From the IMG/VR virus record IMGVR_UViG_2690316325_000003: a DNA stretch of 10,693 bases, one strand, 5' to 3'. A model generated the notes under the pieces. That model was not told the origin of the DNA. It did not search any database and worked only from the letters and a program-made list of their open reading frames with translations. Positions 1-98 of the stretch are shown one piece after another. Each line of letters begins with the position of its first letter. The stretch's first letter is position 1. Source of the DNA: a virus. Taxonomy: Duplodnaviria > Heunggongvirae > Uroviricota > Caudoviricetes. The position numbers and the translations under genes are program-made.

Positions 1-98
1 CGGGGTTATAGCTGAAGCTAATCCTGAGTAAAACGGTGGATCAATATTGGGCCGTTGGTGGAGATATAAGTGGATCACTTTTCATCCGTCGTTGACAC
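1..98. repeat. Terminal inverted repeat, left copy (exact reverse complement of 10596..10693)
   Basis: Base-by-base comparison: 1-98 is the perfect reverse complement of 10596-10693; the match breaks at 99 vs 10595. It makes ORFs 47..283(+) and 10435..10647(-) share the same first 17 residues ([17 protein letters not shown]). Confidence 0.95.

Follow-up and report, generated by a model that had tools for sequence, protein, structure and literature searches.

A perfect 98-bp terminal inverted repeat on an Escherichia coli prophage contig as the inward-facing edges of two IS100 copies

Does a perfect inverted repeat at the two ends of a prophage sequence mark a biological boundary, or was it left there by the assembler? 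This question is raised by the stretch of DNA analyzed here (10,693 bp, in the following termed the window), which corresponds to the entire contig CYEA01000056.1 of the short-read draft E. coli assembly GCA_001283905.2. Bases 10596-10693 are the exact reverse complement of bases 1-98 (100%), leaving 10,497 nt between the two arms, and the arms diverge at base 99, carrying C on the left and T on the reverse-complemented right side. The next-best inverted repeat within the window extends over only 30 nt at 77% identity, by which a chance origin of the perfect 98-mer is excluded. Thus, the perfect 98-bp repeat described in a first-pass annotation was borne out, as was its remark that the identity stops sharply at the inner edges, as these edges mark the terminus of an insertion sequence, IS100. 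As the window represents a whole contig, the outer limits of the repeat are contig ends and no biological boundary.

The repeat proved to be part of a known and already described insertion sequence and is not novel. IS100, encoding the transposase IstA and the AAA+ helper IstB, was first described in Yersinia pestis. Bases 1-97 (plus strand) represent the last 97 bp of this IS21 family element and include the istB 3' terminus together with the right terminal repeat and its closing CA; by sequence match, bases 10597-10693 (minus strand) are the last 97 bp of a second, inverted copy with its terminus pointing inward. A search with the 98-mer, as the first-pass annotation had proposed, accordingly led to the 3' end of IS100 istB. 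On Y. pestis plasmid pPCP1, IS100 is 1,954 bp long, and window 1-97 agrees with its final 97 bp at 96 of 97 positions; both arms are 100% identical to many E. coli copies annotated as IS100 istB. Among 5,426 complete E. coli genomes, 2,979 contain the 98-mer, on chromosomes as well as on plasmids and with up to 25 copies per genome, the matches always coinciding with the 3' end of istB in an annotated “IS21-like element IS100/IS100kyp”. Plasmids of Escherichia, Klebsiella, Salmonella, Yersinia, and Shigella frequently carry the 98-mer as well. The window ends therefore carry the IS100 sequence without any difference, although no more than the outermost 5% of either copy falls within the contig. 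This corrects the earlier statement that the repeat was not recognized as a known IS end, the 98-mer being the annotated IS100 right end, and supports both of its alternative suggestions, namely that the segment lies between two inverted IS copies, both arms being the istB-proximal end of IS100, and that the true repeat is longer than its visible edge, the contig stopping inside a 1,954-bp element. A scan of the window against Rfam at gathering thresholds gave no match.

The anatomy of the arms follows that of the element. The last istB codons within the window encode GVIAEANPE, and the TAA stop at 29-31 is aligned with the annotated istB stop; 66 bp of non-coding right terminal inverted repeat follow, with the terminal CA at 96-97. 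A repeat scan of this right end revealed two direct copies of GTGGATCA on the plus strand at 36-43 and 70-77 (span 36-77), and the same motif is found inverted, as GTGATCCAC, at position 20 of the IS100 left end. Members of the IS21 family possess two genes, terminal inverted repeats composed of two direct repeats, a terminal CA, whose role has been described, and target duplications of ~5 bp (PMC10122671). The GTGGATCA pair may, judged by sequence and arrangement, represent candidate R2/R1 IstA-binding repeats. On pPCP1, IS100 spans record positions 1-1954 (TGTAAC...GTTGACA) with the 5-bp duplication CCCTG on either side, while a complete E. coli copy (L002), likewise of 1,954 bp, is flanked by the 6-bp duplication CGGTAA. 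Full copies begin with TGTAAC or TGTCAC and finish with GTTGACA, showing the conserved terminal TG...CA. The left end of IS100, which is situated outside the window, starts with TGTCACGAACGG or TGTAACGAACGG.

The exact inner edge deserves a separate consideration. Of the 98-bp repeat, 97 bp belong to IS100, whereas base 98 and its counterpart 10596 are phage flank that happens to be alike on both sides. Two findings carry this assignment: more than half of the evenly sampled IS100 matches end their alignment at query base 97, and the C at 98 as well as the G at 10596 are already present in both uninterrupted target sites. Base 98 had also been considered as part of the element, as all four hand-checked copies and also the top 30 matches extended to it; this option was ruled out by the 1,954-bp pPCP1 copy, the empty-site bases, and the evenly sampled match list. 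As a side observation, a C follows all five hand-inspected IS100 right ends (window 98, window 10596, L001 at 3099, L002, and L006 at 1955), while an A follows the second IS100 copy of a related contig (L030, see below) and more than half of the sampled matches fall short of base 98. A target preference for C beside the IS100 right end is unproven.

The DNA between the two arms corresponds to the early-left arm of a lambdoid/P22-like prophage at thrW/proA, extending from cII to int in the gene order cII-cro-cI-N-cIII-kil-Rad52-ssb-abc-ead-xis-int. An intact cII of 99 aa is encoded at 100-399 on the minus strand (PF05269 Phage_CII, E = 2.4e-33). Antisense to its 3' end, a terminator-like hairpin followed by a T-run was located at 124-154 on the plus strand (12-pair stem, T-rich tail). 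Both this hairpin and the region hit by the left IS100 presumably resemble the lambda oop/t0 terminator. The immunity region (538-1552), recognized by profile matches and repeats, consists of cro (66 aa, 538-738, minus strand; PF09048 Cro), an operator/promoter region at 765-828 with a promoter-like site at 791-763 and operator repeats of the TATCACCGC type, and a cI-type repressor gene (237 aa, 839-1552, plus strand; HTH_3 and Peptidase_S24). The sizes of cI and cro match those of lambda, which suggests a lambda-like immunity. Lambda-type operator-like repeats (TATCACCGC / GCGGTGATA) were observed at 765-828 and at 2563-2606, flanking cI-cro and located upstream of the N-like gene. In addition to the N-like antiterminator, the interior encodes a Rad52-type recombinase, a single-strand binding protein gene (ssb), an anti-RecBCD protein, and Ead/DUF551 proteins. 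An excisionase-like HTH_17 protein of 139 aa (9871-10290, plus strand; PF12728) precedes int and is always found directly upstream of int in relatives; a look-up of this protein returned common intact prophages only.

Two further places of the interior attracted attention independently of the repeat. Directly downstream of cI, at 1560-2355 and thus in the position of lambda rexA/rexB, two ORFs (145 and 123 aa) were found that match only the unknown-function PHROGs phrog_5893 and phrog_6136 and have no Pfam or PADLOC match. PADLOC applied to the window ORFs without known function yielded no match either. The pair could represent an uncharacterised exclusion or defence pair expressed in the lysogen. 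Between ssb and the anti-RecBCD gene, a 155-aa ORF (6615-7082) that matches a family of phage endonucleases (phrog_2340, E = 4e-39) is missing at this position in several related prophages.

The interior is collinear and on the same strand with intact prophages located beside tRNA-Thr/proA. Lambdoid/P22-like thrW prophages share its gene order, and their int/xis module adjoins tRNA-Thr/proA in L003 and in L017-L027. In contrast to these prophages, int of the window is cut by IS100, and a second IS100 parts cII from the replication genes. In a whole-window search, no complete E. coli genome was found to hold more than 59% of the window, which is explained by the mosaic nature of these prophages. 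In terms of its dimensions, ~10.7 kb with perfect terminal inverted repeats of ~100 bp, the contig superficially resembles the tectivirus-type genomes, raising the thought of a true linear molecule, either a replicon or a phage genome, that ends in 98-bp terminal inverted repeats as protein-primed elements do. The gene content speaks against it, as genes for a polymerase, a terminal protein, or structural proteins are absent from the interior, which ends in a truncated int; moreover, the supposed terminal repeat begins in the middle of istB, and identical DNA runs into chromosomal genes in a sibling contig (L027, see below). We consider a linear replicon as practically excluded.

At the left junction, 2 bp separate the cII stop codon (100-102, minus strand) from the IS100 terminus. 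In the uninterrupted relative L003, this site reads ...TAATGA, continuing across the insertion point with CCTCAGAAT. The adjacent bases 98-103 comprise the presumptive target-site duplication, CCTCA or CCTCAG. The same cII-IS100 junction is present in L010 and in six Logan read-set assemblies. At the right junction, int is truncated (10167-10619, plus strand): 143 native codons of the 386-codon gene are followed by seven codons read from IS100 (VSTTDEK) and a stop. The resulting product of 150 aa is devoid of the catalytic domain and matches the integrase family phrog_10426 with residues 1-144. Bases 10591-10596 comprise the presumptive target-site duplication of this side, CAAAG or GCAAAG, the G at 10596 being native phage DNA. 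In L027, the empty right site reads ...GGCAAGCAAAG directly followed by GAACGAAGACG. The int-IS100 junction recurs in the independent Logan contig L005. Searching with C-terminal int fragments retrieved only the short cluster representative P0003 (238 aa), which derives from a contig of another strain starting inside int and is uninformative. L009 (1-718; DAFMFM010000201.1 of GCA_021486095.1), a contig of an unrelated E. coli assembly, was observed to begin inside the same int allele, only ~15 nt downstream of the position where IS100 has inserted here. Within the 5,426 complete E. coli genomes, neither junction was detected using 100-bp junction queries at a coverage of at least 80%; only chance extensions past the IS end were retrieved.

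These junctions also allow a misassembly to be judged, i.e., a chimeric or hairpin artefact by which an unrelated sequence received identical stretches of 98 bases at its two ends. Some assemblers and library artefacts do create terminal inverted duplications, and the length would fit a k-mer overlap. Nevertheless, both junctions recur in independent assemblies made from other read sets or with other k, a 46-kb contig from another isolate matches the interior at 100% identity, and the edge of the repeat coincides precisely with an established IS terminus, rendering such an artefact highly improbable. The assembly artefact considered in the first-pass annotation thus holds in part, but the term is too strong: the outer edges were set by the assembler, whereas both junctions are real, being found again in independent Logan assemblies built with k = 31.

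Two related contigs bear on the history of the insertions. The first, L027 (CYBU01000029.1 of GCA_001286005.1; 46,115 bp), agrees with window 1-10596 at every one of the 10,596 bases. It carries the same cII-IS100 junction together with an intact int of 386 aa, followed by proA, proB, phoE, crl, frsA, gpt, and pepD. Since this contig continues through int into proA, the segment is native prophage DNA found where it ordinarily resides in the chromosome, and since it combines the cII junction with an intact int, the two IS100 insertions are separate events, the cII-side copy being the older one. The second, L030 (JHQX01000060.1 of GCA_001265155.1; 9,468 bp), was seen in four samples and is identical to window 1-9369. 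It shares the cII-side IS100 and carries its second IS100 (L030 9371-9468) at window position 9369/9370, inside a 55-aa ORF (9317-9484) and 1.2 kb upstream of the int site, again inverted and with the right end inward as in the window.

The recurrence of this orientation has to be weighed with respect to the origin of the second copy. An intramolecular replicative transposition of the cII-side copy into int, inverting the 10.5-kb segment, would yield exactly the observed geometry of inverted copies with their right ends inward. The ancestral state with a single IS exists in L027, and with the second copy of L030, located 1.2 kb away in the same orientation, both of two events show the orientation that such a mechanism would force. 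However, two of two are expected at random 25% of the time and thus constitute weak evidence, and the IS21 family is described as moving by simple insertion and by tandem-IS cointegrates with 5-bp duplications rather than by Shapiro-type replicative inversion (PMC10122671). Simple insertion would yield the same set of four junction sequences, so that the two models are indistinguishable here. Homologous recombination between the two inverted copies could moreover turn the segment round at a later time, in either direction. Taking these points together, we regard the inversion as unlikely, and two separate insertions are retained as the preferred reading.

The formal layout of an IS, a segment, and an inverted IS furthermore recalls composite transposons of the Tn5/Tn10 type, in which two inverted IS copies flank a segment in the same way. 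The pair and the enclosed DNA might accordingly act as a unit, either as a composite transposon of an immunity/recombination module or as an invertible segment, as inverted repeats of 1.95 kb are substrates for RecA-mediated inversion. The former is additionally favored by the ability of IstA to integrate DNA with two like ends in vitro (PMC10122671). Unlike the Tn5/Tn10-type elements, though, the window shows no sign of movement as a unit but sequential insertions into resident prophage DNA. The segment resides in its native prophage context, collinear with intact prophages and identical in L027 through int into proA; the unit occurs in no other context, with neither junction in the 5,426 complete genomes; the insertions were stepwise, with a different second site in another lineage (L030); and no cargo points to a selection for mobility. 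We therefore judge a composite or invertible unit to be very unlikely. Even when a mechanism forcing the orientation (intramolecular replicative transposition/inversion) and an IS100 pair serving as an invertible or mobile immunity and recombination cassette are taken as one joint alternative, this alternative is rated as improbable in comparison to successive insertions of IS100 into a resident prophage.

While the inner edges of the repeat are biological and given by the IS terminus, the outer edges are only set by the assembler, and the length of 98 is probably the assembler overlap k-1, with k = 99 being our estimate. In the window, each end consists of 97 IS bases and a single flank base common to both sides. 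In L030, each end comprises 98 IS bases and no shared flank base, as the flanks differ at once (C versus A), and the terminal repeat is again 98 bp long. Both contigs hence stop exactly 98 bases before the point where the paths diverge, and because the value of 98 is kept in both (97 + 1 and 98 + 0), the contig end tracks the divergence of the paths and not the IS terminus. Repeat-collapsed contig ends in de Bruijn assemblies present the same picture, with the same k-1 bases at both termini in opposite orientation. The layout is likewise similar to that of chloroplast single-copy regions between inverted repeats, and short reads show neither the orientation of the window segment nor its linkage across the IS copies.

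Other assemblies stop at other distances. The Logan contigs (k = 31) end 28-29 bp into IS100, as seen at the end of L005 (window 10623) and at the ends of L011-L016. Stops at 28 or 29 bp instead of 30 agree with an overlap of k-1 = 30 from which the shared flank bases are subtracted. By the same token, these stops imply that other IS100 copies in those samples share one or two flank bases with the junctions described here. The sibling contig L027 extends 134 bases into IS100, not 97, which is consistent with a different k per sample (135?) within the same pipeline. A widely used Velvet pipeline scans k between 66% and 90%, relative to the length of the reads (PMC5320598). For reads of 150 nt, k of 99-135 would match the 98 bases seen here and the 134 in L027, the Velvet pipeline as the source being conjectural. 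An extension limited by read length would look the same and leave the identical 98-bp signature. A literature search for ERR137824, CYEA01, and GCA_001283905 returned no paper, and k = 99 is for this reason something we infer only. As a practical rule, a terminal repeat whose length remains constant while the biological boundary shifts has its length set by the assembler.

Taking all lines of evidence together, we are highly confident that the window is framed by two opposite IS100 copies, right ends inward, within a thrW/proA prophage and that the assembler stopped inside the repeat. In the proposed course of events, IS100 (IS21 family, istA-istB) would first have inserted between cII and the replication genes, at a distance of 2 bp from the cII stop, in a state that is shared by several isolates. 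Later, a second IS100 would have inserted in this lineage, interrupting int after codon 143. The assembly graph would then branch at the multi-copy IS100, leaving the fixed overlap of 98 = k-1 at either end. Both insertions should be accompanied by target duplications of 5-6 bp, and the far side of the left IS100 is expected to continue into the O gene, that of the right IS100 into the rest of int and proA. Simple insertion makes explicit predictions for the reciprocal junctions, which should read IS100 left end + CAAAGGAACGAAGACG and ...TAATGACCTCA(G) + IS100 left end. On the int side, the reverse-complemented left end would be followed by (G)CAAAG + GAACGAAGACG... and on through int to proA, while the replication-gene side is predicted to end with ...CCAGTAATGACCTCA(G) + IS100 left end. 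Alternatively, the left IS100 might border a deletion or rearrangement instead of representing a simple insertion.

For the interpretation of such contigs, this means that the perfect terminal repeat observed here is the edge of a common IS at a contig break, which is not to be entered in catalogues as a novel repeat, as an att site, or as the end of a linear replicon. With regard to the biology of the host, our data depict a thrW prophage that was hit stepwise by IS100 in related, probably enterotoxigenic, E. coli isolates; judging from the interrupted int and from the IS100 copy that separates cII from the replication genes, this prophage is probably locked in place and no longer able to excise.
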